The translations under genes were made by a program, and so were the position numbers. A stretch of DNA of 64,000 nt from an uncultured Spirochaetota bacterium (GTDB lineage: Bacteria; Spirochaetota; Spirochaetia; SZUA-6; Fen-1364), in assembly GCA_963745235.1 (NCBI GenBank), contig CAVUXE010000035.1:128001-192000 (forward strand), in the 5' to 3' direction. Below are positions 1,210-52,727 of the stretch, one piece after another. Positions within the stretch are counted from its first letter, which is position 1; the number at the start of each line of letters is the position of its first letter. The notes beneath the pieces were generated by a model. The model was not told where the DNA came from, searched no databases, and was given only the letters and a program-made list of their open reading frames with translations.

Positions 1210-1210
1210 G

Positions 1211-2594: not shown

Positions 2595-2603
2595 CCCGTC
2601 CCC

Positions 2604-3734: not shown

Positions 3735-3767
3735 GTGCGCTCCGCTCTAGGTAAGATTGAAGAAATC

Positions 3768-3793
3768 GAGAGGGCAACCCTCGGGTTGCCCTC
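3768..3793. terminator. Stem-loop between binding-protein gene and livH (terminator or mRNA stabiliser)
   Basis: GAGGGCAACCC-TC-GGGTTGCCCTC inverted repeat. Confidence 0.6.
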
Positions 3794-3812
3794 TCCGAAA
3801 TGCTCTTTCAGG

Positions 3813-4964: not shown

Positions 4965-5148
4965 TCTTTCCTCCTTCTATAGAATTTCTTTAAAAAGCGT
5001 TCTTGGTGATGAAACGGGGCTGAGCTCCCGGCCGGTCAGACCAGACTCAGCATACCCATCTTGCGAGTTACGTCTCCACCTCCTTGCGTGAGCGAACGAT
5101 GCCGCGAACCGGACCGCGGAGAGACTTTTTGGCAGGGAATCGTGGAAA

Positions 5149-5176
5149 ATAATACTCCCGCTGAACAAATTGTCAA
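5149..5176 (-). promoter_or_regulatory. Putative sigma70 promoter of liv operon
   Basis: TTGACA-16 nt-TATTAT on minus strand. Confidence 0.5.
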
Positions 5177-5208
5177 GCATCAAGGCCGCTCTCGCCGCGC
5201 TCATGGAG

Positions 5209-5604
5209 CTACGCAAGAAGCCTGTTGCGAACCTCGGGCAGCTCGCAGTACCAGAGCTCGACCGCCGAAAGGACCATCGCGACAGCGGCAATAATAACGT
5301 ACTCGGCGTCGAAGCGCTGGACCCCTCCTGCGTTTTCGGTCGCATGCGGAAGAAGCATCATCAGCCTGCTGATGATGTTGAACCCTTGGGAAAAGGACAG
5401 CAGGTACCAGGGCCAGGAAGCCGCGCTCTTGCGGAAGATAAGTTGGACGAGAGCAATGACCACGAGGAAAGAAAGGAAGATCGGGAGCCACCACTCCTGC
5501 GTGCGGGGCGAATACGAGGAGGCGGGCAAGATCAAGAGCGGCACAAGCTGAAACCAGAGAACGACATAGGCGACGACGCGGTTGCTGAGCAATTTTCGGA
5601 GCAT
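5209..5604 (-). CDS. Hypothetical membrane protein (about 4 TM)
   Basis: 131 aa ORF with four hydrophobic stretches. Confidence 0.7.
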   Translation of the reverse strand: MLRKLLSNRVVAYVVLWFQLVPLLILPASSYSPRTQEWWLPIFLSFLVVIALVQLIFRKSAASWPWYLLSFSQGFNIISRLMMLLPHATENAGGVQRFDAEYVIIAAVAMVLSAVELWYCELPEVRNRLLA

Positions 5605-5661
5605 GAAAGCACAATATCATGGGGGGAGACGGAATGTCGAGAGAAAATTTTCCCTCCCCCT

Positions 5662-5825
5662 TCGCCATCCAACACTGCGGAATACCGCAGTGGGGCTACA
5701 GGGCGCCTTCCGCACATCCCTGTGCTCGGCGCCCTCTCGCCATCCAACACTGCGGAATACCGCAGTGGGGCTACAGGGCGCCTTCCGCACATCCCTGTGC
5801 TCGGCGCCCTCTCGCCATCCATGGC
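5662..5825 (-). repeat. 75-bp tandem repeat (2 copies plus partial) of nested hairpins directly 3' of tRNA-Thr
   Basis: TCGCCATCC recurs at 5662, 5737 and 5812; each unit has CACTGCGG-AATA-CCGCAGTG and AGGGCGCC...GCACA-TCCC-TGTGC...GGCGCCCT stems. Confidence 0.92.
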
Positions 5826-5828
5826 TAG

Positions 5829-5901
5829 AGCCAAGACTGGGAATCGAACCCAGGACCTGCGCATTACGAGTGCGCTGCTCTACCAGCTGAGCTATCTTGG
5901 C
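5829..5901 (-). tRNA. tRNA-Thr(CGT), CCA not encoded
   Basis: GCCAAGATAGCTCAGCTGGTAGAGCAGCGCACTCGTAATGCGCAGGTCCTGGGTTCGATTCCCAGTCTTGGCT; cloverleaf, anticodon loop CTCGTAA. Confidence 0.96.
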
Positions 5902-5910
5902 GTGCCCGGC

Positions 5911-5939
5911 AGCATACAGAAATGGAATGGGAATGGCAA
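5911..5939 (-). promoter_or_regulatory. Sigma70 promoter for tRNA-Thr
   Basis: TTGCCA-17 nt-TATGCT, ending 10 nt upstream of the tRNA. Confidence 0.7.
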
Positions 5940-5955
5940 TGGGTGGCTGGCTGCG

Positions 5956-7445
5956 GGGTGCAAATTCCGGCTGTTGGTAGTTTTGGGGCTAGAAAGGTCC
6001 CTCCCAGCGCGTGGTAAACTACCACTGGCAAAAATCTCGAAGCTGGGAGGGAAAGGACAATGGATTCTCTGGTAACGCAAATCCTTGAAAACTTCAAGGC
6101 AGCATATGGGCTGAAGATCACCGACAGCAGCGACATGTTTCTGACCGAGAAGAACCTTCTGGAGTTCCTCATGAGACTGGGACGCGCAACCATGGGCGCC
6201 GTCTTCGAGCAGTTGGACACGGGCTATGAGGGAGCCGTCATTCGCAAAGACGCTCGGAAGTACAAGTTCGTAGGCTACCGCAGGACCAGTCTTCACGGAC
6301 TATTCGGGATGGTCGAATACCGGCGAGCCTACTACTTCAGTAAGCAAGAAGGCGGTGGGGGATACTTTCCCCAGGATGAGAAACTGGGAATCCAGATGCG
6401 ACACACTCCCGGCTGCCAGTACTTTCTCTCCTCCTTTACAGGGCGGGAGGCCTATCAAAAGAGCCTGGATCGGTTTCACGAGATCTTTCGCCCTGATGCA
6501 ACGGAGCTGATCTCCTTGAGGAAGTCCTTGGACATGGACGCAGAGTTGGGCGAGCGTCTGGAGGGGCTGCGACAAGAGGAGATCGCGCAGGTCTTCGACA
6601 AGAGGCAGCTCATAGCCAAAGAGAATGTGATCAAGGAGCGGATGGCAGTGTCGGTGGATGCCACGAAGCTTCGCCAGCGAGGAGAGGAAGAGCGAAGTGT
6701 TGATGGCAAAAGAACTTGCCCGACCGTGTGGCGCGATGTGAAGGTGGGGGCGGTCTCCTCGATTGGCTGGGACGAAAAGCAGCAGGAGGCGTTTTGCACA
6801 GCCAGCAGCTACGTCAGCGGCATCGAACACGCCGATGAGTTCTTCAAGCGCTTGACGGTGGAGGTGCAACGCCGAGCGGAGGATGTGAAAAAGACGCGGC
6901 TGGTGTTCCTGGCTGATGGGGCGAAGTGGATCTGGGATCGTTTCGTTGAGCTTGCTCCGCCCAACAGCACCTTCATTCTGGATTTCTATCACGCCTGCGA
7001 GCACGTCTCGGAGCTGTGCAAGAAACTCTATGGCGAACAGACTCCCGAGTACTGGAAACATTTCAAAGCTTGGAAAACCACCCTCTGGGAAGGAAAAGTC
7101 GAGACGTTCCTCCAAGAATTGCATGTGATTCGTGACATGGTTGAGCACAGGGACTACCGCGACCTCATCCAAGGGCAGATCGACTATTTCACCGACAACA
7201 AAGAAAGGATGCAGTATGACGTCTACCGTGGTGCCCGCCTTCCCATTGGCAGCGGCACCATCGAGAGTGCCTGTAAGAACGTCATCGCGGGCCGAATGAA
7301 GCAGGGAGGCATGACGTGGTCGGAGACAGGGGCAGACGGGATGCTGCAGATCCGCAGCTCCATTGCAAGCGGCCGCCATCTGCAGGATTTCCTGGCCACG
7401 CTGGACCGGGCAGCGTAAATCTACCTACTTATTGAAATCGCTCCC
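5956..7445 (+). mobile_element. Insertion sequence, ISKra4/ISLre2-like (Mutator-like DDE), 1490 bp
   Basis: 9-bp direct repeat CTGGCTGCG at 5947-5955 and 7446-7454; imperfect 25-bp terminal IRs (GGGTGCAAATTC...GGTAG vs GGGAGCGATTTC...GGTAG, 16/25 identical). Confidence 0.9.
6060..7418 (+). CDS. Transposase, ISKra4/UPF0236-type
   Basis: SVDAT, ADGAKWIW, LDFYHACEH, PIGSGTIESACKNVI..RMKQGGMTW. Confidence 0.92.
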   Translation: MDSLVTQILENFKAAYGLKITDSSDMFLTEKNLLEFLMRLGRATMGAVFEQLDTGYEGAVIRKDARKYKFVGYRRTSLHGLFGMVEYRRAYYFSKQEGGGGYFPQDEKLGIQMRHTPGCQYFLSSFTGREAYQKSLDRFHEIFRPDATELISLRKSLDMDAELGERLEGLRQEEIAQVFDKRQLIAKENVIKERMAVSVDATKLRQRGEEERSVDGKRTCPTVWRDVKVGAVSSIGWDEKQQEAFCTASSYVSGIEHADEFFKRLTVEVQRRAEDVKKTRLVFLADGAKWIWDRFVELAPPNSTFILDFYHACEHVSELCKKLYGEQTPEYWKHFKAWKTTLWEGKVETFLQELHVIRDMVEHRDYRDLIQGQIDYFTDNKERMQYDVYRGARLPIGSGTIESACKNVIAGRMKQGGMTWSETGADGMLQIRSSIASGRHLQDFLATLDRAA

Positions 7446-11401: not shown

Positions 11402-11417
11402 TGGCACGCTACTTGCT
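11402..11417 (+). promoter_or_regulatory. Sigma54 (-24/-12) promoter
   Basis: TGGCAC-GCTAC-TTGCT, perfect consensus, after an AT-rich intergenic tract. Confidence 0.85.
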
Positions 11418-11434
11418 TATTTATCATCCAGGAG

Positions 11435-12286
11435 ATGTCAATGAGCAAGAGGCGGGAGGCAACATCTTCCTTTGAGGACAACCTCAAAGCCTATTTCAAC
11501 CAGATCAAGAAGGCCCGGCTCCTGACCTTCGAAGAGGAGTTGGATCTTTCTCGACGGATACAGAAGGGCGATGAGAGCGCCCGCCGGCTTCTCATTGAGT
11601 CGAATCTCCGTCTCGTTGTCCGAATCGCCAAGAACTACCTGACCCCTGAGGTCTCCATCCTGGACCTCATCCAGGAGGGAAACATCGGCCTCATGAGGGC
11701 CGTGTCGAAGTACGATTTCAGGAAGAAGGTCAGGTTCAGCACGTATGCATCGTGGTGGATCAAGCAATCCATTGTGAGATCCCTGTCCAACAAGAAGAGG
11801 GTGATCCGTCTCCCCCACAGGCAGGAAGAGAAGCTTCGCAAGATCAACAAGGTCTACAACAATCTCTCGCAGGTGCTCATGCGGGAGCCGACCCTGGTGG
11901 AGATTGCGGGGGAGATCGGCCTGGAGGAAGAGGAGGTCGCCTCCATCATCAATTCATCCGGCTCCGTGGCGTCCCTGGATTCTTCCATCTCCCCGGATTC
12001 CGGCAGCCTCCACGACATAGTGGAGGACATGTCCTTCAATCCCGACCGGGAGCTGATGCGGAAAACCCTCCGTGAGGACACCCTCAAGTTCCTCGACGGA
12101 TTGCAGGAGAAGGAGCGCCGCATCCTTCTCTACCGCTTCTCCTTTGTGAGCGGAAGGCGTCATACACTCAAGAAGATAGGCGATGAGCTGGGCATCTCGC
12201 CGGAAACAGTGCGACAAATAGAGATCCGGGCCCTCAAGAAACTCAGAAGCTTCTCCGAAGAGCTGAAGGAGTATGTCTACAGTTGA
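11435..12286 (+). CDS. RNA polymerase sigma factor, RpoD/RpoS family lacking region 1.1 (RpoS-like)
   Basis: LIESNLRLVVRIAK; DLIQEGNIGLMRAVSKYD; RFSTYASWWIKQ; TLKKIGDELGISPETVRQIE. Confidence 0.9.
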   Translation: MSMSKRREATSSFEDNLKAYFNQIKKARLLTFEEELDLSRRIQKGDESARRLLIESNLRLVVRIAKNYLTPEVSILDLIQEGNIGLMRAVSKYDFRKKVRFSTYASWWIKQSIVRSLSNKKRVIRLPHRQEEKLRKINKVYNNLSQVLMREPTLVEIAGEIGLEEEEVASIINSSGSVASLDSSISPDSGSLHDIVEDMSFNPDRELMRKTLREDTLKFLDGLQEKERRILLYRFSFVSGRRHTLKKIGDELGISPETVRQIEIRALKKLRSFSEELKEYVYS

Positions 12287-15348: not shown

Positions 15349-16401
15349 TCAGCAGATTCGGGGCAGCAACAGGCCGCGCGGGAAATCCAGCAGGCGCTTT
15401 CCCCCGATGCTCGTCGTCATGATCACCGCGCCGGGGTTCCCAGAGGTGACTCTCCCAACGACCTTGGACTGACTTCCCAGGGCAAGCGACCTGAGGGCGC
15501 CGAGCGCCTTGTCCGCGGCTTCCGCGGCAACAAAGGCCACGAATACGCCCTCGTTCGCGATCTCAAGCGGATTGAGCCCCAGGAGGTCACAGACCGCCCT
15601 CACGTCCTGGTTGACGGGAAACTCGTCCTCTTCCACATCGATTCCCCAGGAAGCGCCAGAGGCGCCGAGGGAAGCGCCTACGACGCGCGGAGAAGCGCTT
15701 CCCACAACCTCGTTCAGCACAGCGGCCACCCCTCCGCGCGTCGCATCACGCATGAAATGAAGGGATTGACCCAGCGGGAACAGGGCGCTCGTCAGCGGAT
15801 AGAGGGAAGCCGCGTCGGAGCGCAGCGTGTCGCCGACAGGCAAAGACTCACGGGCCGCCAGGATGGTGATTCCATGAGCGCCCAGCGGGCCTGAGACGAT
15901 GATGGCATCTCCTGGTCTCACCGCGGACGGTGACAGGGCATGGGGGAAGACTCTGGTCCCGACCCCCGCGGTAGTCAGGAACAGCCCTCCGCCCTTGCCC
16001 TTGGGCACCACCTTGGTGTCCCCAGTGATAATGCGCGTTCCCGCTTCTTTGGCTGCTTCCGCTGCCGAGGCCAGGGCCCGTTGAAGCTGCGAGACAGGGA
16101 ACCCTTCCTCTATGACCATCGCCAGAGACAGGGAAATGGCCCGGGCGCCGCAGACGGCAAGATCGTTGCAGGTACCGAAGACGCACAACTTCCCGATGTC
16201 TCCTCCCGGGAAAAAGGGAGGGTCCACGACGTAACCGTCGGTTGTCAGGAGAAGCTCGGAGCCGGACGCAAGGGGAGTGGCGTCCGACAGCTCAGCATAG
16301 GCATCTGAGGCGAAAGCAGGGTAGATCACGGACTCCACCAGGTCCCGGGAGAGAGCACCTCCGCTGCCGTGCTCCAGCCTGATGAGCCCGTCCGCGCTCA
16401 T
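15349..16401 (-). CDS. hypE: Hydrogenase maturation protein HypE
   Basis: HGSGG; FFPGGDIGKL; TGDTKVV; RDATRGG; C-terminal LPRIC. Confidence 0.97.
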   Translation of the reverse strand: MSADGLIRLEHGSGGALSRDLVESVIYPAFASDAYAELSDATPLASGSELLLTTDGYVVDPPFFPGGDIGKLCVFGTCNDLAVCGARAISLSLAMVIEEGFPVSQLQRALASAAEAAKEAGTRIITGDTKVVPKGKGGGLFLTTAGVGTRVFPHALSPSAVRPGDAIIVSGPLGAHGITILAARESLPVGDTLRSDAASLYPLTSALFPLGQSLHFMRDATRGGVAAVLNEVVGSASPRVVGASLGASGASWGIDVEEDEFPVNQDVRAVCDLLGLNPLEIANEGVFVAFVAAEAADKALGALRSLALGSQSKVVGRVTSGNPGAVIMTTSIGGKRLLDFPRGLLLPRIC

Positions 16402-17478
16402 TTGCGCGCACCGTAGCGGAAATAGGCGGCGCAGGTTCCTTCCGAAGACACCATGCAGGGACCCACGGGATCATCAGGGGTGCATTTCCTTCCGAACAGG
16501 ACGCACTGGGGAGGCTGTGCTTTACCGGCAATCACGCGCGCACAGATGCAGCCTGGCGCCTCGGCGTCCCGGGCGGGGGGAAGCCTGAAACGTTTTTCCG
16601 CGTCCATGCGCGCAAGCTCCGGACGAAGACCCAGGCCTCCTCCGGGAATGACCCCCAGTCCGCGCCAGACGTCGTTTCGTGGCTCGAGACTCTTCTCGAT
16701 GACGGCGAGTGCCCGCGGATTACCCTCTGGCTTCACTGCCCGGGGATAGGCATTCTCCACGCGTTTTTCGCCCTTGTCGATCTGCCGCGCGAGGAGGAGG
16801 ATGCCGAGGAGCATGTCCAGAGGCTCGAACCCGGTGATCACCCCGGGTCTCCCGCCGTCCGCGGTGAGGAAGCCGTACGCCTCCTCTCCAATGATGACAG
16901 ATACGTGCCCCGGCAGGATGAAACCGTCAATTCCATGGTCCGGGCTGGAAAGCAGAAACCGGAAGCGCCGGAGGAACGGTCTTGAACGCCGTGTAGAAAA
17001 GAAGGTTCTCGACACCCTGCTCCTGCGCTTGGAAAAGGGTCGATACCACGGTCGGAATGGTGGTCTCGAATCCGACCGCGAGGAACACGACGGGCAGGGA
17101 AGAACGCTTTGCTATCTGGAGCAGCTCAGAGGGCGAATAGACGAGCTTCACGAGGTCTCGACCGGAAAGAGAGCTCAGCGCCCGGCCGCTTGTCCCCGGG
17201 ACTTTCAGCATGTCCCCGAAGGTCGCGATGACAGCCTGTCCGGACTCTGCAAGGGAAAGGGCATTGTCCACGTATCCGGCCGGGGTAACGCACACGGGGC
17301 ATCCGGGACCCGAGATGAGGTTGATTGCGGAGGGCAGCAGAGACTGGACGCCCTTGCGCCGCAGCTCCACAGTGTGTGTGCCGCACACCTCCATGAGGGA
17401 AAGCGGCCTCCCGATCCTGCGGACGCTCGTTTCGATCTCGGAGACCATGTCGGCAGCAAGCTGCTTCTCGTCATTCAT
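16398..17478 (-). CDS. hypD: Hydrogenase maturation protein HypD, frameshift near 16960
   Basis: MEVCGTH, GPGCPVC, GFETT (ORF 16927-17478); PGHVS, GPCMVSSEGTCAA (ORF 16398-17015). Confidence 0.92.
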
Positions 17479-41968: not shown

Positions 41969-43627
41969 TCACGTCCCGTTTGATCCCTTCAGCCTCCGAT
42001 AGCGGCGGATCAGCGCGTTGGTGGAGCTGTCGTGCGACAGGGCAGGGTCACTCCTGCTCTCGAGCTCGGGGACGATTTTCTTTGCCAGGACCTTGCCGAG
42101 CTCGACGCCCCACTGGTCGAAGGAGTCAATGCTCCAGATCGTCCCCTGCGTGAATACGCTGTGCTCGTACAGGGAAACCAGGAGCCCCAGTGTCTCCGGC
42201 GTCAACCGTTCGGCCAGGATAGTATTGGTGGGACGATTGCCCTCGAAGACCCGATGCGGCGCAAGAGTGCCGTCCGTTCCCTCGGCCTTGACTTCGTCTT
42301 CCGTCTTGCCGAATGCCAGCGCCTCTGTCTGCGCAAACAGATTTGCCATGAGGAGATCATGCTGGTTGCCCACCGGGTTCAAGGTCTTGCAGAAGCCGAT
42401 GAAATCGCACGGGATCAGCTTTGTCCCCTGATGGACGAGCTGATAGAAGGAGTGCTGGCCATTTGTGCCCGGTTCTCCCCAGTAAATGGGGGCCGTCTGA
42501 TAGCTGACGCCCCTGCCGTCAAGGGTGACATGCTTCCCGTTGCTCTCCATTGTCAGCTGCTGCAGGTACGCCGGGAATCGCTTGAGGTACTGGTCGTAGG
42601 GCAGCAGGGCGACGGTCTGGGCATCGAAGAAGTTGTTGTACCAGACCGTGAGCAGGCCCATGAGGACGGGAAGGTTCTTTTCGAATGGCGCCGCGCGGAA
42701 GTGGTCATCCATGGCACGAAAGCCGGAAAGCATCAACCGGAAGTTTTCCGGTCCGATTGCGATCATGGTCGACAGCCCGATGGCTGAGTCCATTGAGTAG
42801 CGCCCGCCCACCCAGTCCCAGAAGCCGAACATGTTTGCCGTGTCGATGCCGAACTTCGCCACCTCCTCCGCATTGGTGGAAACGGCGACAAAGTGCTTTC
42901 GCACGGCTTCCGCGCCGCCAAGCTTGCGCAGGCTCCACGCCCGGGCGGCATGCGCGTTGGTCAACGTTTCCAGGGTCGTGAAAGTCTTTGAGCAGATGAT
43001 GAACAGGGTCTCTTCAGGATCCAGGTCGCGCACTGTTTCAGAAAAGTCAGTGCCATCAACGTTGGAGACAAAGCGGAAGCTCATGTCCCGCCGGCTGTAG
43101 TGACGGAGGGCCTCGTAGGCCATCACGGGGCCAAGGTCCGACCCGCCTATCCCGATATTGACAACGTTGCGGATGCGCTTCCCCGTGTGTCCGCGCCACG
43201 CTCCGTCGCGCACCTGGTCGGCGAAGTCCGCCATCCCGTCAAGCACTGCCCGCACCTCGGGAACCACGTCCACGCCGTCCACCACAATCCGCTCGCCCTC
43301 CCGCGCCCGCAAGGCGGTGTGAAGGACGGCGCGCTTTTCCGTCACGTTGATCTTCTCTCCGCTGAACATCGCTTCCGTGCGCGCGCGAAGGCCGGACTCC
43401 TCCGCAAGTTGCAGCAGCAGCCGGATGGTCTCATCAGTCACCCGGTTCTTGGAGTAGTCGAGGTAGATACCGGCGGCTTCGACCGTGAAGCGCTCGCCTC
43501 GCCGGGGATCTTCCGCAAAGAGCTCGCGCAGGTGCAGCGTTCGCATCTTCCTGGAGTGCGCTTCCAGCGCCTTCCACGCCGGGCGTTCGGTGAGCGGCTG
43601 TATGGGTGCGGATGAGTTGCGGGTCAC
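41969..43627 (-). CDS. pgi: Glucose-6-phosphate isomerase
   Basis: DYSKN; [10 protein letters not shown]; [10 protein letters not shown]; MESNGK; [10 protein letters not shown]. Confidence 0.97.
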
Positions 43628-43816
43628 GGTCACCTCCTCCGGGCCTCCCACCAGGCCCGCTGTCCAGACACAATCTATTGCACAAAAGGTGCCTGCGTCA
43701 AAGCTCGTCAACTGATATTTCAGCCGCCGGCGCCAGCCGTCAGCCGCCCGCCTCCGGCGCTTGCCCGAGGATGTTGCAATTTATGATATTCGGCCCTACA
43801 GAGGAAAGGAGACGCA

Positions 43817-44299
43817 ATGTACAAGACGAAGAACGATCTGCCGGAGAAAGTTCGAGCCGAGATGGTGACGCTTCTGCAGCAGCGGCTCGCTGACTGTATT
43901 GACCTCGTGACACAGGCCAAGCAGGCCCACTGGAACGTCAAGGGACCGAGCTTCATCGCGCTGCATGAGTTGTTCGACGAGGTCTATGCCCACGCGGGTG
44001 ACTCCGCTGACCTGATCGCGGAGCGAATCGTCCAGCTTGGCGCTGTTGCCGAGGGCACCGCGCGTATCGCGGCAAAGCGGTCCGGGCTGGCAGAGTACCC
44101 TCTTGAGATTGCAAACGGCAAAGATCATGTCGAGGCGTTGTCTCGCGCCCTGGCCTACACGGCTGAGAGCATCCGCAGCTCGATCGACCGGGCGGACGAG
44201 ATGGGGGACAAAGGCACGGCCGACATTTTCACGGAGATTGTGAGGAGCCTCGACAAGGACCTGTGGTTTGTCGAGGCGCACCTCCAGGCCGAGCGATAG
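43817..44299 (+). CDS. dps: DNA starvation/stationary phase protection protein
   Basis: KQAHWNVKGPSFIALHELFDE; DLIAERI; DKDLWF. Confidence 0.95.
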   Translation: MYKTKNDLPEKVRAEMVTLLQQRLADCIDLVTQAKQAHWNVKGPSFIALHELFDEVYAHAGDSADLIAERIVQLGAVAEGTARIAAKRSGLAEYPLEIANGKDHVEALSRALAYTAESIRSSIDRADEMGDKGTADIFTEIVRSLDKDLWFVEAHLQAER

Positions 44300-44403
44300 C
44301 CCCCGGGCAGGCGCCGTGCGGGTTCCCCGAAAATCGCCAGGCCGCGGCAGGGAGTGCAGGCGCCGTGGCGCCTCCGGCGGACCGGGGCGCGCGCTCGCGG
44401 ATC

Positions 44404-45357
44404 TCATTTCTTTCGCCGGGACAGGACCGCGGCCAGGATGATGAGACCCTTGATGATCTGCTGGTAGTAGGATTGGACGTTGTACTGGTTGAGGAGGTTG
44501 TCGATGACTCCCAGGATGAGCACTCCCCAGAACGTCCCGATGGCCCCTCCTCCGCCCCCGCCCAGGATGCCGCCGCCGATGACCACAGCCGCGATGGCAT
44601 CCAGCTCAAAGCCCGCACCGAAGCTGGGCTGCGCAATTCCCAGCCGGGAGGAAAGGAGGACTCCTGCCATCGCCGCGAAGAACCCGCACAGGATGTAGGC
44701 AAGGAGCAGGTGTCCCTTGACGTTGATGCCGGCAAGCCGCACGGCTTCCTCGTTGCCGCCGATGGCAACGACGGCCCTGCCCGGAATTGTCCGGTTCAGG
44801 AAGACCCAGATGACGAAGAAGCAGATCACCATGATGACCGACGCGGTGGGCACGGGGCCAATGAATCCGCCGCCAAGAAGCGCTCGGAACGCAGGGTCCA
44901 CCGGTGTCTGCGGGGTTTCCGAGAAGACGTACGTCACGCCTCGAACCACACCCATGGTCGCAAGGGTGACGATGAAAGGCTGCAGCTTGAACCGCGCGAT
45001 AAAGAAGCCGTTTGCAGTGCCAACTGCTATCCCTGCCACGAGGGCCACCAGGATGGCCGCCGGCATGGGCATCTGTTTCTGGAGGCCCGTGGCCATGATC
45101 CCGCACAGCGCGACGGTGGAGCCCACCGACAGGTCGACGCCTCCGGTGAGGATCACCACCAGCATGCCGATGCTGATGAGGCCGTTGGTGACGATCTGGC
45201 GAGAGATGTTGATGAGGTTCCTGGAGGTGAAGAAGGTCTCAGAGACCAGCGAGCTGATGAGGATCAGCACGACGAAGATCCCGACAAAAGCGAAATCCGA
45301 CCAGCGGATCCTCGCCGTTTCCCGCATCCTGTCGACAAATGGAACCGCAGCCTTCAT
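44404..45357 (-). CDS. Monosaccharide ABC permease (RbsC family)
   Basis: GGVDLSVGS; PFIVTLATM; AIGGNEEAVRLAGI; ELDAIAAVVIGG. Confidence 0.93.
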   Translation of the reverse strand: MKAAVPFVDRMRETARIRWSDFAFVGIFVVLILISSLVSETFFTSRNLINISRQIVTNGLISIGMLVVILTGGVDLSVGSTVALCGIMATGLQKQMPMPAAILVALVAGIAVGTANGFFIARFKLQPFIVTLATMGVVRGVTYVFSETPQTPVDPAFRALLGGGFIGPVPTASVIMVICFFVIWVFLNRTIPGRAVVAIGGNEEAVRLAGINVKGHLLLAYILCGFFAAMAGVLLSSRLGIAQPSFGAGFELDAIAAVVIGGGILGGGGGGAIGTFWGVLILGVIDNLLNQYNVQSYYQQIIKGLIILAAVLSRRKK

Positions 45358-46868
45358 GTTTGTCCCCCGCTGTTGATCACGCCTGCCGCGCGCTGGAGCA
45401 GTATTTCCTCGTTCGCTTCTGCGCGGTCCAGGTTTCCTACGAGCCTGCCTTCCCGCATGACGAGAATCCGGTCACTCATTCCCAGGACCTCGGGCATCTC
45501 TGATGAGATGAGCAGCACGCCCACTCCTGTTTCGACCAGGCTGTTGATGAGGTGGTAGATTTCCACCTTCGCGCCGATGTCCACCCCGCGGGTGGGCTCG
45601 TCAAGGAGAAGCACCTTGGGCTGCGAAAGGAGCCACTTGGCAAGCACCACCTTCTGCTGGTTTCCTCCGCTCAACGTCCGCACGGATCTGCCGAGAGCCG
45701 CCGTCCGCACGGCCAGCGCATCCACCTTTTCCTGCACAAGGACCGTCTGCCGCGCGGTGTCCAGGAACATGCCGTGGCCCATGCGGGGAAGGGAGGCAAG
45801 GCTCACGTTGTCGCGGACCGAGCAGCTCATCACCAGGCCGTCCCGCTTGCGGTCCTCCGTCACCAGGGAGACCCCCGCGTTCACCGCGTCCCGGGGGGAC
45901 CGCAGCCGCACGGGCTTCCCCTGGACGCTGATGCGTCCCGAGGTTGCCGGCTCCGCGCCGAAGATGCTCCTCGCAACCGCTGTCCTCCCGCTTCCGACGA
46001 GCCCGAACATGCCAACCACCTCACCGCGGCGCACGGAGAAGGTGACTTTTTGAAACTCTCCCTCCCGGCCCAGGTCCTCGACGCAAAGCACCTCTTCTCC
46101 CGGGGGCACGGAGCGCCGGGGATAGATCTCCTCCACCGACCGTCCCACCATCATCCTGATCAGGTCATCCTGGCTCACGGATACGGTGGGCACCGTGCCC
46201 ACCACCTCGCCGTCACGAAGCACCGTGATGCGGTCAGCGATCTCGAAAACCTCTTCCAGGCGATGGGAGATGTACAGCACGAGCGTGCCCTCCGCCTTCA
46301 GGCGGCGGATGAGGGAGAAAAGAAGGGCCAGCTCGTCCTTGGAGAGCACCGCGGAGGGCTCGTCAAGGATGAGAATCCTCGGCTTCTCCGCCAGCGCCTT
46401 GGCGATCTCCACGACCTGCTGGTGGGATACGCTGAGCCGCGAGACCCGTGTGCGCGCGTCCAGCGCGGTGAACCCCAGGCCGCTGAGGATTGTGCGGGCC
46501 TGGGAGCGCGCCTGGCGCCAGTGGACCCAGAGGCCGCCGCTGTTCGGCAGCCTTCCCATGAGGATGTTCTCCGCGATGGTCAGGTGCGGCACGAGGCTGA
46601 ACTCCTGGTGGACGGCCCGAATGCCCAGCCTGTTCGCCTGGTGGGGAGTGCTCATTGTCACGGGCGCTCCGCCGATCACGATCCTCCCGGAATCCGGAGT
46701 GACTGCTCCCGAGAGGACATTCATCAGGGTCGACTTGCCCGCGCCGTTCTCTCCGACAAGGGCGTGGATCTCCCCGATGGATGCGGACATGCTCACGTCC
46801 CGGAGGGCCACGGTGCCTCCGAATCTTTTGTAGATGCTCTGCATGGACAAGAAGCAATCACTGCTCAT
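45354..46868 (-). CDS. Monosaccharide ABC ATP-binding protein, tandem NBD (RbsA family)
   Basis: GENGAGKSTL; LDEPSAVL; LSGGNQQKV; DEPTRGVDIGAK. Confidence 0.95.
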   Translation of the reverse strand: MSSDCFLSMQSIYKRFGGTVALRDVSMSASIGEIHALVGENGAGKSTLMNVLSGAVTPDSGRIVIGGAPVTMSTPHQANRLGIRAVHQEFSLVPHLTIAENILMGRLPNSGGLWVHWRQARSQARTILSGLGFTALDARTRVSRLSVSHQQVVEIAKALAEKPRILILDEPSAVLSKDELALLFSLIRRLKAEGTLVLYISHRLEEVFEIADRITVLRDGEVVGTVPTVSVSQDDLIRMMVGRSVEEIYPRRSVPPGEEVLCVEDLGREGEFQKVTFSVRRGEVVGMFGLVGSGRTAVARSIFGAEPATSGRISVQGKPVRLRSPRDAVNAGVSLVTEDRKRDGLVMSCSVRDNVSLASLPRMGHGMFLDTARQTVLVQEKVDALAVRTAALGRSVRTLSGGNQQKVVLAKWLLSQPKVLLLDEPTRGVDIGAKVEIYHLINSLVETGVGVLLISSEMPEVLGMSDRILVMREGRLVGNLDRAEANEEILLQRAAGVINSGGQT

Positions 46869-48313
46869 AGGGGTGGCGCGGGGAATGCATTATGGACAAG
46901 GATCACCTTCTGCTCGGTCATCTCGTCAAGCGTATCATGAAGCCCCTCGCGGCCGTACCCGCTCATCTTGGTCCCGCCGAAGGGAAGGTTCTCCGAGCGG
47001 AGGGCCGAGGACCAGTTCACGATGACCCCTCCCACCTCGAGCCGGTCCGCAATCGTGAGGGCACGGGAGATATCACTCGTGAAGACGGCCGCCTGAAGAC
47101 CGAATGAGCTGTCATTTGCCATGGTCACTGCCTCAGCCTCGGTGGAGAAGGGGACCACGGGAGCGACGGGACCGAACGTCTCTTCCCTGAAGAGCGGAAC
47201 GGAGCTGGGCACGTCCGCGAGCACCGTTGGCGTCACGAAGGATCCGCGTCTCTGCCCGCCGAAGAGCAGCCGAGCGCCGGCTTTCACCGCCTCCACGGTG
47301 GCGGCCTCCACTTTCCGGGCGGCTTCCTCGCTGATCAGGGGGCCTACGTCCGTCTCCTCCCGCAGCTGGTCTCCCACGCAAAGCGTCCTTGCCCTGGCGG
47401 AAAGCCGCTCGCAGAAATCTCCGTAGACCCGTCGATCCACGAAGACCCTCTTCACTGCGCAGCAGATCTGGCCGTTGCCCCGGGCCAGGCGGCCCAGGAC
47501 CACGGCCTCCGCCGCTTTCTCCAGGTCCGCGTCCGCGCAGACGATGGTGGCGTCATTCCCTCCGAGCTCGAGGTGGACCTTCTTCAGCGTTTCCGCGCCG
47601 AGCTGTGCCAGACGGATCCCCACCGCCGTGCTCCCCGTGACCGAGACCATGCGCACCACCGGGCTGCGGGCCAGCAGCTCTCCGACCTGCTCCCCCGGCC
47701 CCGTTACCATCTGGTGAGCTCCGCGGGGAAGACCTGCGTCTTCCAGGATGCCGGCGATTTTCAGGAGAGTGAGGGGGCAGGCGCTGGGAGGTTTCGCAAT
47801 CACGGCGTTGCCGGCGGCAAGGGCGGGAGCGGCCTTGTGCGCATACAGCTCCACCGGATAGTTGAAAGGAACGATGGCAGCGATGACGCCCAGCGGCTGG
47901 CGAACGGTCATGGCGAAATGCCTTTCATTGCCGGGCACCGCGTCCATGGGAATCATGCGGCCGAAGATGCGCCTGCCTTCCTCCGCAAACCCCCGGAAGA
48001 TCCGAGCCGTGACGTCCACCTCGTCCCTGGTCTGGCGGATCGGCTTGCCGTTCTCCCGGGCCAGGAGCGTTGCAAGCTCCTCCCTGCGGTCATGGATGAC
48101 ATCCGCGGCCGCGGCCAGGATGGCGGACCGCTTGTGCGCGGGCAGAGCCCGCATGCGCCCGCTGCCCTCCACCGCCGCCTGCAGGGCGCGCTGCACGTCC
48201 GCCGCCGCGGCAACGGGGACGGTGTCGATGGCTTCCGCGGTCCCGGGGTTGCTGACTGTTTGAGTCTTTCCATCTCCAGCGGCCACCCACTGGCCGTCGA
48301 TGAGCATTTTCAT
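46865..48313 (-). CDS. Aldehyde dehydrogenase family protein
   Basis: PFNYP; TGSTAVG; LELGGND; GQICCA; EETFGP. Confidence 0.93.
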   Translation of the reverse strand: MKMLIDGQWVAAGDGKTQTVSNPGTAEAIDTVPVAAAADVQRALQAAVEGSGRMRALPAHKRSAILAAAADVIHDRREELATLLARENGKPIRQTRDEVDVTARIFRGFAEEGRRIFGRMIPMDAVPGNERHFAMTVRQPLGVIAAIVPFNYPVELYAHKAAPALAAGNAVIAKPPSACPLTLLKIAGILEDAGLPRGAHQMVTGPGEQVGELLARSPVVRMVSVTGSTAVGIRLAQLGAETLKKVHLELGGNDATIVCADADLEKAAEAVVLGRLARGNGQICCAVKRVFVDRRVYGDFCERLSARARTLCVGDQLREETDVGPLISEEAARKVEAATVEAVKAGARLLFGGQRRGSFVTPTVLADVPSSVPLFREETFGPVAPVVPFSTEAEAVTMANDSSFGLQAAVFTSDISRALTIADRLEVGGVIVNWSSALRSENLPFGGTKMSGYGREGLHDTLDEMTEQKVILVHNAFPAPPL

Positions 48314-48332
48314 GTGTGATCTCCGGAAAGGA

Positions 48333-48360
48333 CCCCGGCCTCTGAGCGCAGAGGCCGGGG
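48333..48360. terminator. Stem-loop after binding-protein gene
   Basis: CCCCGGCCTCTG-AGCG-CAGAGGCCGGGG. Confidence 0.65.
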
Positions 48361-48367
48361 AAAGATG

Positions 48368-49321
48368 CTAAAACACGCTCTCTGGAATGTAGAACCTGGC
48401 CACGTTGTCGATCGTGATCAGAGGCGACGGCAGAACGGTGTCCTTCTCCGACTGCGCGCCCGCCAGGAGAGCCATGAGCCGGGTGAATCCGGCGCGGCCT
48501 ATCTGGTCAGAGCTGTTCAGCCCCGTCGCGGCGTAGTTCGTCTTTTTCATGATCTGTTCCAGTGCAGCCTTCTCGCCGTCCACCCCGCAGATGAAGATCT
48601 GGCTGGTCCGGCCGGCATCACCTATGGCCTTCTGGGCGCCCAGCGCCATGGAGTCATTCTCCGCGAATACGGCGTCAATCTGGTTGTACTTTGCAAGCAA
48701 GTCCTCCATGAGCTTGAACCCGCCGTCTGAGCTCCAGCCGCCGAAGTTGGGCGCCATGACGACCTCTATCTTGCTCTTCTTCACTTCGGAGAGCATGCCG
48801 TTGGTGCGGTCAAGGCCGATGGAGTTGTCGGCAGGCCCCCCGCGCAGCACCACAAGGCGGCCCTTGCCGCCCAGCCGCTTCACGATGTACTCCCCGTCCT
48901 GCTTTCCGATGGCAAGGTTGTCCGGGCCCACCCAGCTCGTGTAGTCCCCGCCTTTGAGCTTGCGGTCGACCAGGACCACGGGCACTCCCGCCTTCTTGAT
49001 TGCGTCCAGAGCCTCTGGAGCCGCCTCGAGCCAGGCGGCGCTTATGATGAGCCCGCTCACGTTCTGCGCAAGCACGTCTTCGACATCCGAGGTCAGCTTC
49101 TGCGCGTCCCCCTTCGCATCAGTGGTGACGAGCTTGATGTTGCCGAAGTGCTCACACTCCTGTTTCACCGCCTGCGACATGCCGATGAAATACGGGCTCG
49201 TGAGCGCCAGGTTCACCATGCCGATCTTGATCTGGCCTTTCCCCTGCGCTGCCGCGGAAGTGGCGGAAAATGCCAGGGCAACCGCGCAAAGAATGAACAC
49301 CAGGAACCGGAGCTTTTTCAT
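48368..49321 (-). CDS. Sugar ABC substrate-binding protein (RbsB-like)
   Basis: Signal peptide; SPYF; VVLVDR; VGPDN; AENDSMALGA; GVDG. Confidence 0.92.
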   Translation of the reverse strand: MKKLRFLVFILCAVALAFSATSAAAQGKGQIKIGMVNLALTSPYFIGMSQAVKQECEHFGNIKLVTTDAKGDAQKLTSDVEDVLAQNVSGLIISAAWLEAAPEALDAIKKAGVPVVLVDRKLKGGDYTSWVGPDNLAIGKQDGEYIVKRLGGKGRLVVLRGGPADNSIGLDRTNGMLSEVKKSKIEVVMAPNFGGWSSDGGFKLMEDLLAKYNQIDAVFAENDSMALGAQKAIGDAGRTSQIFICGVDGEKAALEQIMKKTNYAATGLNSSDQIGRAGFTRLMALLAGAQSEKDTVLPSPLITIDNVARFYIPESVF

Positions 49322-49385
49322 ATGTCTCCTCCCTTTCGGTTGAGAGATGGGGCCGGAAGACTTCCAGCCTTGGCCCTCACGAGCA

Positions 49386-49402
49386 TGCATGCTCCGTGCC
49401 AA
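49386..49402 (-). promoter_or_regulatory. Sigma54 promoter of sugar ABC operon
   Basis: TTGGCAC-GGAGC-ATGCA on minus strand, about 65 nt upstream of the start codon. Confidence 0.8.
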
Positions 49403-49485
49403 GGCGGAGGGTCGACAGAAAGCCGGTCGGTGTGTTTTGCAACTTATTGTATCACAGCAGGTTATGCGACGGAATGGAAGAAGCG

Positions 49486-49515
49486 TTGACAGCTGCATCC
49501 AGCCGCGGATATAGT
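49486..49515 (+). promoter_or_regulatory. Sigma70 promoter of regulator pair
   Basis: TTGACA-18 nt-TATAGT. Confidence 0.65.
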
Positions 49516-49551
49516 GAATGTGTAGAATTTACCCAATTCGCGGGAGTCGGC

Positions 49552-50893
49552 TTGAGTAATAATCACGAGCAGCGCGCCGCATCCAATCTGCTCATTGTGG
49601 ACGACAAGGTGAAGCTTTGCCGGAGCCTTGCCCGCAATTTCGAGCACGTGGGGTTTACCACATCCATTGCCACAACGGGGCAGGAAGCCGTTGCGCGGTT
49701 CTCGGCCGCCCGGATGGACGCGGTGCTTCTGGACATCATGCTCGGGGAGGAAAGCGGCATCGACATCCTCACGAAGCTTCTCGCCGTGGACAAGAATGTC
49801 CCCGTGATCATGATCACCGGCTACGCCTCGGTGGACAGCGCGGTGCAATCTCTGAAGCTCGGCGCGTTCGACTACGTGAAGAAGCCGCTGGACTTCGAGG
49901 AGCTCCTGAAGACCGTGGAGAAAGCGTGCGAGTTCTCCCGCCTGCGGGAGGAGAACAGCAAGCTGCGGTCCCGGCTCAAGGAGCTGTCAGCAACCATCGT
50001 TACCCGGGATGCCCGCATGGGGGCACTGATCCGCAAGGTGGAAAAGCTTGCCGCCACCGACCTTCCGCTGCTGATCTGTGGAGAGAGCGGGACGGGGAAA
50101 GAGGTCCTGGCTGACTACGCGCATTCGGCGTCCGCGCGAAGCGCCGCGGCCATGGTGAAGATCAACTGCGTCGCCTTCCCCGAGACGCTTCTCGACAACG
50201 AGCTCTTCGGCCATGAGAAGGGCGCGTACACGGGGGCGGATTCCGTTTTCAAGGGCCTGTTCGAGAAAGCAGACGGGAGCACCCTCTTTCTTGATGAGAT
50301 CGGCGACATGCCGCTCGGCATCCAGGCCAAAATCCTCAGGACGCTGCAGAACAACGAGATCAGGCGGCTGGGAGGAAATGACACCATTCGAGTGAACGTG
50401 CGCTTCATTGCCGCGACGAACAAGGACCTCGCGGAGCTGATCAGGAAGGGCCAGTTCCGGGAGGACCTTTTCTACCGGCTGAACGCCGCGGTTCTTTCCA
50501 TCCCCTCTCTCAGGGAACGCCGCGACGACATCCCGCTCCTCGTGGAGCATTTCCTTCGCGGCTATCCCGTCGCGCAAGGATGTGACCGCCGAGGTGATGG
50601 AAAAGTTCCTCCCGTACGACTGGCCCGGAAACGTTCGGGAGCTGAAGAACGTGGTCAACTACGCGGCGGCAATGTCCTCGGGAGACAGCATCGGGATCGA
50701 GGACCTTCCGGTGCATTTCCTGGAAGGCACGCGCGCCGCGGCCGGCGGGAATATCCGCGAGGACATGGAGAGGGCCCTCATCCTCAAGGTCCTGCAGAGC
50801 ACCAAGTACAACCGTTCGAAGACCGCCGAGCTCCTGATCATGAGCCGCAAGACCCTCTACACCAAGATGGCGAAGTATGGTCTCAACTCCTGA
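49552..50893 (+). CDS. NtrC-family sigma54-dependent response regulator, frameshift near 50570
   Basis: REC (LLIVDD, LLDIML); AAA+ (GESGTGKE, HEKGAYTGA, FLDEIG, FREDLFYRL); second frame WPGNVREL and Fis-type HTH. Confidence 0.92.
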
Positions 50894-52727
50894 GGCGGTT
50901 TCGACGGAGACCGATCTCCTTCGCCTTGCCCACGTGTGCCTGGACTACGGGCAGGTGGAGGCGCTCAAGGATGTCAACCTTGTGCTTCGCGGTTCGACCG
51001 TCCACGCCATCGTAGGTGAGCACGGGGCGGGGAAGTCTTCCCTCGGGATGGTGATCAGCGGCAACGTGCGGCCGCGCCGGGGACACGTGGAGCTGGACAA
51101 CCGGCGCTTCGACTCCCTCACCACCCGCACGGCCCACCGGCTGGGCATCGAGATGGTCTACCAGCAGGTGCAGCTCAACACCTTCTTCACGGTGGCGGAG
51201 AATATCTTCTTCCTGAACAAGTCACTGGCGCGGCGCGGCCTGCTCAGCCAGCGGCGCCTCGCACGCGAGGCCCAGACATTCCTTGACCAGCAAGGCTTCA
51301 ACCTGGACCCGACCGAGGTCGTCAAGAACCTCAACCTCCCCGACCGGGTCCTCATCTCCATCCTTGCGGCTCTGCAGAAACGGCCCCGGCTCCTCATCCT
51401 GGACGAAGCGCTGGAAAAGCTCTCTTCTTCGGATTTGCCGAAAATCATGCGCGCGCTGAACCAGATGAAATCCGAGGGGATGGCAATCCTCTTCATCACG
51501 CACCGCATCGACGACGTGTATGATCTTGCCGACCGGGTGAGCATCGTGAAAAACGGGGAGATCCTGGTGACCGATGATGTCGGACACATCGACAAGATGA
51601 ATCTCCTGCGCCTGACATACACCCAGGTCTACTCCCTGGAAAACGCCGGCAACCGAAAGCGGGAGTTCAACCAGTTCCTCAAGTACAACGAGGCGGTCCT
51701 CCTCAATCTCCCGGTGAACCTCATCGTGGTCGACGGGGAAGAGCGGGTGAAGATCGTGAACGAGCGCTGCAAGGGGTATTTTCACCTTGGGGACGCTCCT
51801 ATCGCCAACCAGCCCCTGGAGAGGCTTCTCGGTGCGGAGAACCAGGAGACCCTCTCGCTCATCCGCGAGGCCTTCCGGTCCGAGGAGGGGAACGCCTTCT
51901 ACCATGTTCCGCTTGCCATCGCGGGGGACGACACCGTGAACAACGTGCGGACGCTTCCGATCTACGACGAGGAGCGGCTCATCGGGAACATCATCATCAT
52001 CGAGGACATCACGGAGTTCGACAAGCTGCAGAAACAGGTCATCCTCTCGGAGAAGCTCGCCTCCGTGGGGCTCCTTGCCGCGGGGGTGGCGCACGAGATC
52101 AACAACCCCCTGGAGATCGTCTACAACTACCTCAAGTACATCAAGTACTCCTTCGATGACGCGAAGCTCCATGAGACGGTGGACGAGCTGCACGAGGAGA
52201 TCACCTACATCGCGGGGATCGTTCGCGACCTCCTGTCCCTCTCCGGCACCGCACAGGTCCAGAGGGAAGGGATCGACATCAACGAGATGATCAGGAGCAC
52301 CGTGGGCCTGCTTCGCCACAGCGCGCACGAGAAGCTCATCACCATGGCATTCGGCTCGCAGGAAAGGGAGCTGACCCTTACGGTCAACCGGAACGAGATC
52401 AAGCAGGTGATCCTCAACCTCGTGAAGAACAGCTTCGAGGCCATGCCGGGCGGCGGGCAGATCAGCATCGAAACCTCGCGGGCGCTGGACGAACGGGGAC
52501 GACCGTGCGCTTCGATCGTGTTCAGCGACACGGGCCCCGGGATACCGGACGCGAACCTCACCAACGTCTTCATCCCTTTCTACTCCACCAGGAAGGGAAA
52601 GGGGGATCACGTCGGGCTTGGTCTTTCCATCTGTTACGGGATCATCAAGCGCCATGACGGGAGCATGAGCGTGAGGAACCTGGAGCGCGCCGGGTGCCGC
52701 TTCACCATACGGCTTCCCCTGCCATGA
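50877..52727 (+). CDS. Fusion: sugar-ABC-type ATPase domain + PAS + NtrB-type histidine kinase, no TM segments
   Basis: GEHGAGKSS, VYQQ, LLILDE, FITHR; PAS (AVLLNLPVNLIVVD...EDITE); AHEINNPL; NLVKNS, DTGPGI, GLGLSI. Confidence 0.9.
   Translation: MVSTPEAVSTETDLLRLAHVCLDYGQVEALKDVNLVLRGSTVHAIVGEHGAGKSSLGMVISGNVRPRRGHVELDNRRFDSLTTRTAHRLGIEMVYQQVQLNTFFTVAENIFFLNKSLARRGLLSQRRLAREAQTFLDQQGFNLDPTEVVKNLNLPDRVLISILAALQKRPRLLILDEALEKLSSSDLPKIMRALNQMKSEGMAILFITHRIDDVYDLADRVSIVKNGEILVTDDVGHIDKMNLLRLTYTQVYSLENAGNRKREFNQFLKYNEAVLLNLPVNLIVVDGEERVKIVNERCKGYFHLGDAPIANQPLERLLGAENQETLSLIREAFRSEEGNAFYHVPLAIAGDDTVNNVRTLPIYDEERLIGNIIIIEDITEFDKLQKQVILSEKLASVGLLAAGVAHEINNPLEIVYNYLKYIKYSFDDAKLHETVDELHEEITYIAGIVRDLLSLSGTAQVQREGIDINEMIRSTVGLLRHSAHEKLITMAFGSQERELTLTVNRNEIKQVILNLVKNSFEAMPGGGQISIETSRALDERGRPCASIVFSDTGPGIPDANLTNVFIPFYSTRKGKGDHVGLGLSICYGIIKRHDGSMSVRNLERAGCRFTIRLPLP

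Follow-up and report, generated by a model that had tools for sequence, protein, structure and literature searches.

How is a sugar importer operon switched on when its neighbour is not a repressor gene but a sigma-54 activator gene, followed by the gene of a histidine kinase that carries a transporter-type nucleotide-binding domain (NBD)? This question is raised by two divergent operons at 44404–52727 of a 64,000-nt stretch of DNA from an uncultured Spirochaetota bacterium (contig CAVUXE010000035.1, positions 128,001 to 192,000), the whole of which is referred to here as the window. Importers of the CUT2 group (TC 3.A.1.2: RbsABC, AraFGH, XylFGH, YtfQRT) are usually under LacI, AraC or XylR-type control, whereas the control here appears to lie with a sigma-54 two-component system. 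An earlier note on this DNA had proposed that the transporter signals through the NBD of the kinase to the activator, which then switches on the transporter's own sigma-54 promoter in place of the usual LacI/ROK control. The last point fits the locus, where a repressor gene is missing. The path from kinase to activator to the transporter's own promoter gained strong comparative support from the gene order, the invariant promoter core, the corresponding sites at paralogous and distant loci and the presence of rpoN, and these comparisons give good support to a two-component system whose dedicated target is the sigma-54 promoter of the importer next to it. The state of the transporter is probably read directly, and the operon switched on in response.

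Conserved linkage of the transporter, activator and kinase genes

The genes of the module, and the two halves of the kinase, are given below by position and strand.

44404–45357, minus strand: CUT2 permease, RbsC/AraH-like, 317 aa, last gene of the operon (Pfam BPD_transp_2, 1.2e-47)
45354–46868, minus strand: motor ATPase with tandem NBDs, 504 aa (two ABC_tran domains in Pfam)
46865–48313, minus strand: aldehyde dehydrogenase, 482 aa, inside the transporter operon (Pfam Aldedh, 1.8e-157)
48368–49321, minus strand: periplasmic sugar-binding protein, 317 aa, first gene of the operon (Peripla_BP_4, 3.7e-51)
49552–50893, plus strand: NtrC/AtoC-like sigma-54 activator (REC, Sigma54_activat with GAYTGA, lid, HTH_8)
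50877–52727, plus strand: NBD-kinase, 616 aa, soluble (Pfam ABC_tran 30–179, PAS_4 277–381, HisKA 398–456, HATPase_c 505–615)
50877–51626, plus strand: kinase residues 1–250, an ATP-binding cassette (ABC) NBD of the CUT2 NBD1 type (ABC_tran 3.4e-21)
51627–52727, plus strand: kinase residues 251–616, comprising linker, PAS, HisKA (His406) and HATPase_c (Pfam)

Pfam assigned all four leftward genes in the order that the earlier note had read, namely binding protein, aldehyde dehydrogenase, tandem ATPase and permease, and it found the REC, Sigma54_activat and HTH_8 domains of the NtrC-type activator that the note had recognised by its GAYTGA loop. Synteny of the six genes across genomes had been named there as a check. 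This order was kept in all 11 orthologous loci of the same genus, whose kinases share 68–84% identity with that of the window: the binding protein and aldehyde dehydrogenase genes, followed by those of the ATPase and permease as far as the contigs reach, were divergent from the activator and kinase genes, which overlapped by 17 nt. The aldehyde dehydrogenase gene was retained in each of these 11 loci and was missing from more distant modules, including four loci at 45–48% kinase identity that retained the transporter, activator and kinase.

The window's genome holds four activator–kinase pairs, each beside a CUT2 transporter, and the same arrangement was identified in six more distant loci from the candidate division KSB3 and other Spirochaetota. 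Only six of the 80 loci kept by a contig profile search, in which ordinary kinases prevailed, had the full architecture. A total of 45 stretches were pooled, and four whose kinase match was split or had a late start (L005, L124, L140 and own_C75) were left out, which gave 41 stretches with 42 full-length kinase genes. In all 42, which come from Spirochaetota and KSB3, the activator stood directly upstream of the kinase, as one match in 40 cases and as a split match in two. A CUT2 ATPase or permease was located within ~7 kb of 41 of the 42 kinase genes.

Kinase matches at E ≤1e-60 were present in 17 of the 18 other genomes of the genus and in 12 of the 400 other genomes sampled from the phylum; the phyletic distribution of the NBD-kinase is patchy. 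Among the best 120 matches in the protein database, which come from Spirochaetia, KSB3/Moduliflexus-type bacteria and Desulfobacterota, 118 carry ABC_tran, HisKA and HATPase_c, and they bear generic names only. One uncultured Spirochaetota contig (L027, 1–13900) contains two complete activator–kinase–transporter modules back to back, and a genome of the window's own genus (G015) has six kinase matches. From such arrangements, the modules appear to multiply as units.

The activator gene required a correction of the window sequence. Its frame changes near 50570, giving a false 539-aa open reading frame (ORF) that ends at 51015 and seemingly overlaps the kinase gene by 139 nt. Once the extra base is removed, the frame runs from TTG at 49552 to TGA at 50891–50893 and overlaps the kinase, which starts with ATG at 50877, by 17 nt. 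The contigs of four sequencing runs were compared over 49300–51300, one being the likely source run and three deriving from other samples and studies. All four were one base shorter at 50570–50572, with an identical local sequence, which demonstrates that the activator gene is intact and that the window carries a 1-nt assembly error; a pseudogene was ruled out for the same reason. Both parts of the activator were found in one frame, with the 17-nt overlap repeated, in eight orthologous loci (L110–L113, L115–L117 and L119). The overlap of the two genes that the earlier note had described is therefore real, but it measures 17 nt and not 139.

The phospho-acceptor Asp context of the receiver (LLDIML) and the GAYTGA loop, an F to Y variant of GAFTGA, are conserved in the orthologues; all nine activators of the orthogroup that were examined have GAYTGA and retain the receiver Asp. 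The N-terminal part of the activator scored 362 with the AtoC-type NCBIfam equivalog, below its cut-off of 714. Elsewhere in this assembly, a split into adjacent frames was seen in two further CUT2 ATPases and in one paralogue of the NBD-kinase (G000 C9:145.6–147.1k, C28:144.7–146.2k and C75:69.5–71.3k). Indel errors appear to be common in it, which is a caveat for ORF-based findings in this genome.

The intergenic region and its promoters

The promoters and other elements that lie between the two operons are as follows.

49353–49367, minus strand: 15-nt inverted repeat of the predicted 5′ leader, in mRNA sense CYGGAAGTYTTCCRG (present in all 12 orthologous leaders)
49386–49401, minus strand: sigma-54 type −24/−12 promoter, TGGCACGGAGCATGCA (consensus match and conservation in orthologues)
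49486–49515, plus strand: sigma-70 type promoter of the activator–kinase operon, TTGACA-18-TATAGT (11 of 12 positions)
49519–49535, no strand assigned: 17-bp palindrome, TGnGTA-N5-TACnCA, a candidate activator site (12 of 12 orthologues)

The −24/−12 consensus of sigma-54 is TGGCAC-N5-TTGCW. The reverse complement of 49386–49402 reads TTGGCACGGAGCATGCA, and the promoter sequence fits 10 of the 11 specified positions of the consensus, with the GG and GC cores 10 nt apart. The pattern TGGCAC-N6-TGCW occurred twice in the window against 0.19 expected, and a scan with a stricter consensus returned only 96 sites in the whole 5.85-Mb genome. The intergenic region was aligned with those of the 11 same-genus orthologues (n = 12); the GG/GC core was invariant in all 12 sequences, whereas the N5 spacer varied freely. 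The site that the earlier note had placed at 49386–49402 was thereby confirmed, and so was its sigma-70-like promoter at 49486–49515, in which the 12 orthologues share TTGACA and TA..T. Transcription of the importer operon is predicted to start near 49375, ~54 nt before the ATG of the binding-protein gene. In RNA runs, a fraction of only 0.06–0.07 of the sequence words was present. The DNA-binding domain of rpoN is encoded in the genome (G000:C9:14093–14572). At position 49384, two bases outside the −12 element, the contigs of samples X2 and X3 have T for C; the promoter core is not touched by this difference between strains.

In the wider set, 33 of the 42 modules had a divergent sigma-54-like site within 450 nt upstream of the activator gene. 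Six of the nine modules that had none (L027_4815, L134, L135, L141, L142 and own_C9) have their nearest transporter gene on the kinase strand, and in the co-directional module of the window's own genome a sigma-54-like site stands in front of the transporter.

The palindrome lies directly 3′ of the sigma-70 −10 box and ~118 nt from the −24 element. All 12 orthologues have it and none of the 30 other modules does, a distribution that is uninformative on the wider family, being restricted to the orthogroup, and that fits a candidate site specific to this activator. We regard it as a candidate upstream activating sequence and, given its position, a candidate auto-operator of the activator. No second activator site was evident in the aligned intergenic region, where a scan for inverted repeats gave only short hexamers; a semi-conserved block at ~49441–49458 has no clear resemblance to the palindrome.

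One arm position of the leader repeat covaries, reading C-G in eight sequences, U-A in three and U.G in the window. The element had two matches in the window against 0.00 expected, and 33 matches at ≤2 mismatches genome-wide. An exact copy of its orthologue consensus is located inside pgi (42737–42751, plus strand), 6.6 kb off, and this copy is not present at the orthologous loci. The leader element could be a small RNA hairpin or a DNA operator.

Outside the module, a second sigma-54 site with a perfect core, TGGCACGCTACTTGCT, was observed at 11402–11417 on the plus strand. It stands after flagellar rod and ring genes and ~18 nt before a sigma-factor gene (11435–12286, plus strand), whose product has sigma-70 regions 1.2, 2, 3 and 4 and whose best NCBIfam models were RpoS/RpoD, below cut-off. 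In Borrelia, RpoN and RpoS form a regulatory cascade. A sigma-54 site before an RpoS/RpoD-like gene recalls that cascade, here in a free-living soil or peat spirochaete.

The importer and the NBD-kinase

The leftward operon encodes a complete CUT2 set, namely a Peripla_BP_4 protein, a fused double-NBD ATPase and a BPD_transp_2 permease, which are the same components as in the known CUT2 importers; the aldehyde dehydrogenase gene inside the operon sets it apart from them. Neighbouring genes overlap by 4 nt or stand 54 nt apart. In NCBIfam, the transporter proteins are nearest to ribose, arabinose and xylose systems: the binding protein is RbsB-like, the motor ATPase is AraG/XylG/RbsA-like and the nearest models of the permease are ribose and arabinose permeases. 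All of these matches fall below the equivalog cut-offs, and for the sugar itself the only pointer is the similarity of the binding protein to ribose-type proteins. The binding protein has a signal peptide with a hydrophobic N-terminus, its nearest solved relatives are ribose-type binding proteins (best 4ry9_A, E 2.6e-40), and its gene is preceded by GGAGGAG 5 nt 5′ of the ATG. For the aldehyde dehydrogenase, the top model was lactaldehyde dehydrogenase, at 488 bits against a cut-off of 650.

The two halves of the motor ATPase are unequal. NBD1 has a consensus Walker A and an H-loop together with the signature LSVSHQQ, while NBD2 has a degenerate Walker A (GSGRT), a missing H-loop His and the canonical signature LSGGNQQ. 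Judged by these motifs, the asymmetry is typical of the CUT2 ATPase family, in which a consensus site is likewise paired with a degenerate one. The permease has a conserved cytoplasmic loop, GGNEEA..AGINV (residues ~197–211), where the NBD is predicted to make contact. The end of the operon is at 44404, in agreement with the earlier note. A 203-aa ORF at 43796–44407 on the minus strand was considered as a fifth gene and rejected, as it had no family match and was not found in the orthologues; a 160-aa Dps/ferritin-like gene (43817–44299, plus strand), convergent with the operon, overlaps it, and the minus-strand ORF is an artefact of high G+C.

The domains of the kinase fill the whole protein and leave it without a membrane or periplasmic sensor of its own; no hydrophobic segment was found (maximum KD19 1.39). 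Its core is AtoS-like in NCBIfam, at 209 bits against an equivalog cut-off of 646, and its H, N, G1 and G2 boxes do not vary among 58 sequences (H406, N514/N518, D551-G553-G555 and G580-G582). The AlphaFold2 model, built from the 58-sequence alignment, had a mean pLDDT of 74.7, with ~85–90 in the NBD. A linker of low confidence (241–270) was followed by a normal PAS fold, a helical hairpin and the catalytic domain. Among the solved structures, no entry spans both halves of the kinase.

The NBD of the kinase has a Walker A (GEHGAGKSS), a Q-loop (YQQ), a Walker B with the catalytic Glu (LLILDEA) and an H-loop (ITHR). Residues K53, Q96, D176 and E177 are invariant, H209 is present in at least 90% of the sequences, and the groove residues L100, V106, E108 and N109 are nearly invariant. 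The signature LSGGQ is absent; the window has LNLPDR in its place, and the family consensus, LNLSDR, is itself conserved. The domain is ~35% identical to NBD1 of the motor ATPase and ~23% identical to NBD2, and it is nearest to the N-terminal half of YtfR/AraG in NCBIfam.

Its ancestry was examined in a tree of 42 kinase NBDs with 34 neighbouring NBD1s and 34 NBD2s, obtained by a quick LG+G4 search that gave long-branch warnings. All 42 kinase NBDs fell on one side of a branch within the NBD1 lineage (SH-aLRT 99), and the NBD2s were separated from the side holding the kinase NBDs and NBD1s (SH-aLRT 100). Recent and separate capture of the adjacent ATPase NBD by each kinase was rejected for this sample, as the kinase NBDs group apart from all 34 NBD1s. 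Several subclades of the kinase NBDs mirror subclades of the adjacent ATPases. This quick tree points to one old fusion of NBD and kinase that later travelled with its transporter.

A complex of the full permease (18-row alignment) with kinase residues 1–262 (58-row alignment) was predicted in three runs. It scored 0.75 in the three runs, with a contact agreement of at least 93% and a partner pLDDT of at least 79, while three controls scored 0.00, 0.00 and 0.43. Of 80 solved complexes, 58 attain the pass mark, as do 2 of 110 mismatched pairs, a calibration that is only rough for our own alignments. Permease residues 185–211 and 268–269 were placed against NBD residues 61–63 and 82–125, so that the GGNEEA..AGINV loop faces the Q-loop together with the first helices of the helical subdomain, and the kinase family conserves this part of the NBD. 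No close CUT2 ATPase was among the best sequence matches to solved structures. The predicted contact is the textbook interface of an NBD with a membrane domain; the pass therefore demonstrates likeness and is no proof of binding, though by this model the kinase NBD still looks able to dock on the permease.

How the transporter may be read

The reading that we favour, at slightly better than even confidence, is that the locus is a self-contained sugar module in which the NBD of the kinase docks on the permease and reports its state to the activator. The sigma-54 promoter of the four-gene operon would be silent until the activator is phosphorylated. The partner of the activator would be a soluble, dimeric histidine kinase without the usual sensor, whose N-terminus is a copy of NBD1 of the importer. 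This NBD would dock by its Q-loop groove onto the cytoplasmic coupling loop of the CUT2 permease, and the sugar-loaded binding protein would impose motions on the permease that reach the kinase core by way of the linker and PAS domain. Phosphate would then go from His406 to the receiver Asp of the activator, which would assemble on the palindrome at 49519–49535, ~150 bp upstream, and open the −24/−12 promoter.

The lack of a membrane segment in the kinase, together with the conserved Q-loop and groove and the grouping of all kinase NBDs within the NBD1 lineage, was counted in favour of the NBD as a docking module. The signalling step from transporter to NBD, which the earlier note had put at the head of the circuit, has weaker support than the rest; we infer it from the invariant Q-loop, the conserved groove residues and the one complex prediction, which passed its controls. 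As to the direction of the response, the data allow two designs, since a positive loop and an arrangement in which the idle transporter holds the kinase off fit them equally.

Several observations weigh against the docking of the NBD as a positive signal. The tandem ATPase is already present, which leaves the permease dimer without an obviously free NBD site, and the kinase NBD would need to compete with the motor ATPase or to bind a separate pool of permease. The loss of the signature motif makes a transporter-like, ATP-driven closure of the NBD doubtful. The control with the same NBD and a swapped permease still scored 0.43, and the pass may reflect a generic likeness of NBDs and ABC permeases. 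A sigma-54 promoter without basal activity cannot supply the permease for the first signal, a single candidate activator site was found whereas such activators usually use at least two, and the PAS domain could be the real sensor. Finally, one locus (L133; G173:C31, 7662–16130) has no CUT2 gene within 8 kb of its kinase–activator pair. Its neighbours are a LacI-type regulator, then araB, araD and araA, and a divergent sigma-54-like site is still present upstream; this pair may control a transporter encoded elsewhere.

The best of the alternatives, which we hold to be unlikely though worth serious attention, is that the PAS domain reads a cytoplasmic small molecule, either the imported sugar or its product, and that the NBD is only an ATP/ADP-sensing or dimerising accessory that never touches the transporter. 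PAS domains commonly bind ligands, and here PAS_4 lies between the NBD and the kinase core and was modelled as a normal PAS fold; the invariant Walker A and B motifs suggest that nucleotide binding is probably retained, and L133 keeps its pair with no adjoining transporter. Sensing by PAS leaves unexplained, however, why the Q-loop and groove residues, which contact the membrane domain in ABC systems, are conserved, why 41 of the 42 kinase genes stand beside a CUT2 transporter in particular and why the docking prediction passed its controls.

It is less likely again that the NBD and the transporter do touch but in another sense: the idle permease sequesters and silences the kinase until transport sets it free, which would combine induction with homeostatic negative feedback; or NBD and motor ATPase compete, in which case the kinase would also regulate transport; or the NBD pairs with the motor ATPase instead. 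This low estimate covers the three variants together. Competition would be the simplest geometry where a tandem ATPase normally fills the NBD sites of the permease dimer, and an idle transporter that holds the kinase off would overcome the difficulty of starting up from a tight sigma-54 promoter, much as the transporters of PstSCAB–PhoU–PhoR and MalK–MalT hold their regulator off. The conserved replacement motif LNLSDR also suggests a new, constrained contact. Against this, the sole prediction that was run puts the NBD on the permease, and the data do not distinguish the sign of the signal. That the adjacency is functionless, the pair regulating something else or the module decaying in this genome, is very improbable, since the activator frameshift of the window, which with several other split genes in the assembly might suggest it, is missing from the contigs of all four runs, linkage and promoter are conserved across phyla and all catalytic motifs are intact.

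To return to docking on the permease, the two NBD1-like domains of a kinase dimer may replace the motor ATPase on some of the permease dimers and so form a receptor of binding protein, permease dimer and kinase dimer, an arrangement that we consider possible but somewhat short of an even chance. If this is true, the membrane domains of the importer would be the transmembrane sensor of a soluble histidine kinase, autophosphorylation would be gated by NBD mechanics and not by a HAMP or periplasmic domain, and the change from LSGGQ to LNLSDR would be an adaptation from a motor to a signalling domain.

Two further observations in the window concern other genes. A HypD fragment (16398–17015, minus strand) matches profile positions 166–351 only, which we count among the apparent indel errors of the assembly. 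A run of ORFs at 887–7418 had no Pfam match and a third-position G+C of 0.56–0.60, against ~0.8 in the operon, and ends in a UPF0236-like ORF; it may be foreign or mobile DNA.

Among described systems, those nearest to the module are Bce-type modules, PstSCAB–PhoU–PhoR and MalK–MalT, in all of which a separate kinase or regulator touches the transporter. In BceRS–BceAB of Firmicutes, as here, a kinase without a ligand sensor of its own is thought to read an ABC transporter and to induce its genes. Bce-type modules have a membrane kinase with intramembrane sensing (BceS), an exporter-type permease with a large extracellular domain (BceB), an OmpR-type regulator and a sigma-70 promoter, whereas the kinase here is soluble and carries an NBD, the permease is BPD_transp_2 of a CUT2 sugar importer and the regulator is an NtrC-type sigma-54 activator. 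In the Pst and Mal systems of E. coli, the NBD side of the importer conveys transport status to the regulator, as is proposed here, but the transporter's own NBD contacts a separate protein (PhoU/PhoR PAS, or MalT); in the present module a dedicated second NBD copy is fused to the kinase, with its signature motif replaced. AtoS–AtoC has the same PAS-HisKA-HATPase_c core and a REC-AAA+-HTH_8 activator on the sigma-54 promoter of a catabolic or uptake operon. It gave the closest named NCBIfam models, with scores here far under the equivalog cut-offs, and AtoS differs in being a membrane protein with a periplasmic loop and no NBD. A full-text literature search, with subscription journals and supplements outside its scope, found no paper on a fusion of an NBD with a histidine kinase, and the fusion is not mentioned in the available parts of a Pfam count table (PMC2853384) or of a survey of sigma-54 regulons (PMC12316311).

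Sensing through transporters is already known; what differs here is that a transporter-type NBD is fused to the kinase itself. The fusion gives a direct, mutable handle, in the Q-loop, Walker A and the altered signature, on the step from transport status to phosphorylation, in a family of kinases that is large yet only generically named. The regulatory claims can be tested directly in a heterologous host, thanks to the conservation of the promoter, the leader element and the palindrome. Should the docking model prove true, the module would offer a compact, portable, sugar-inducible sigma-54 switch, and it would represent a route by which ABC importers become receptors.

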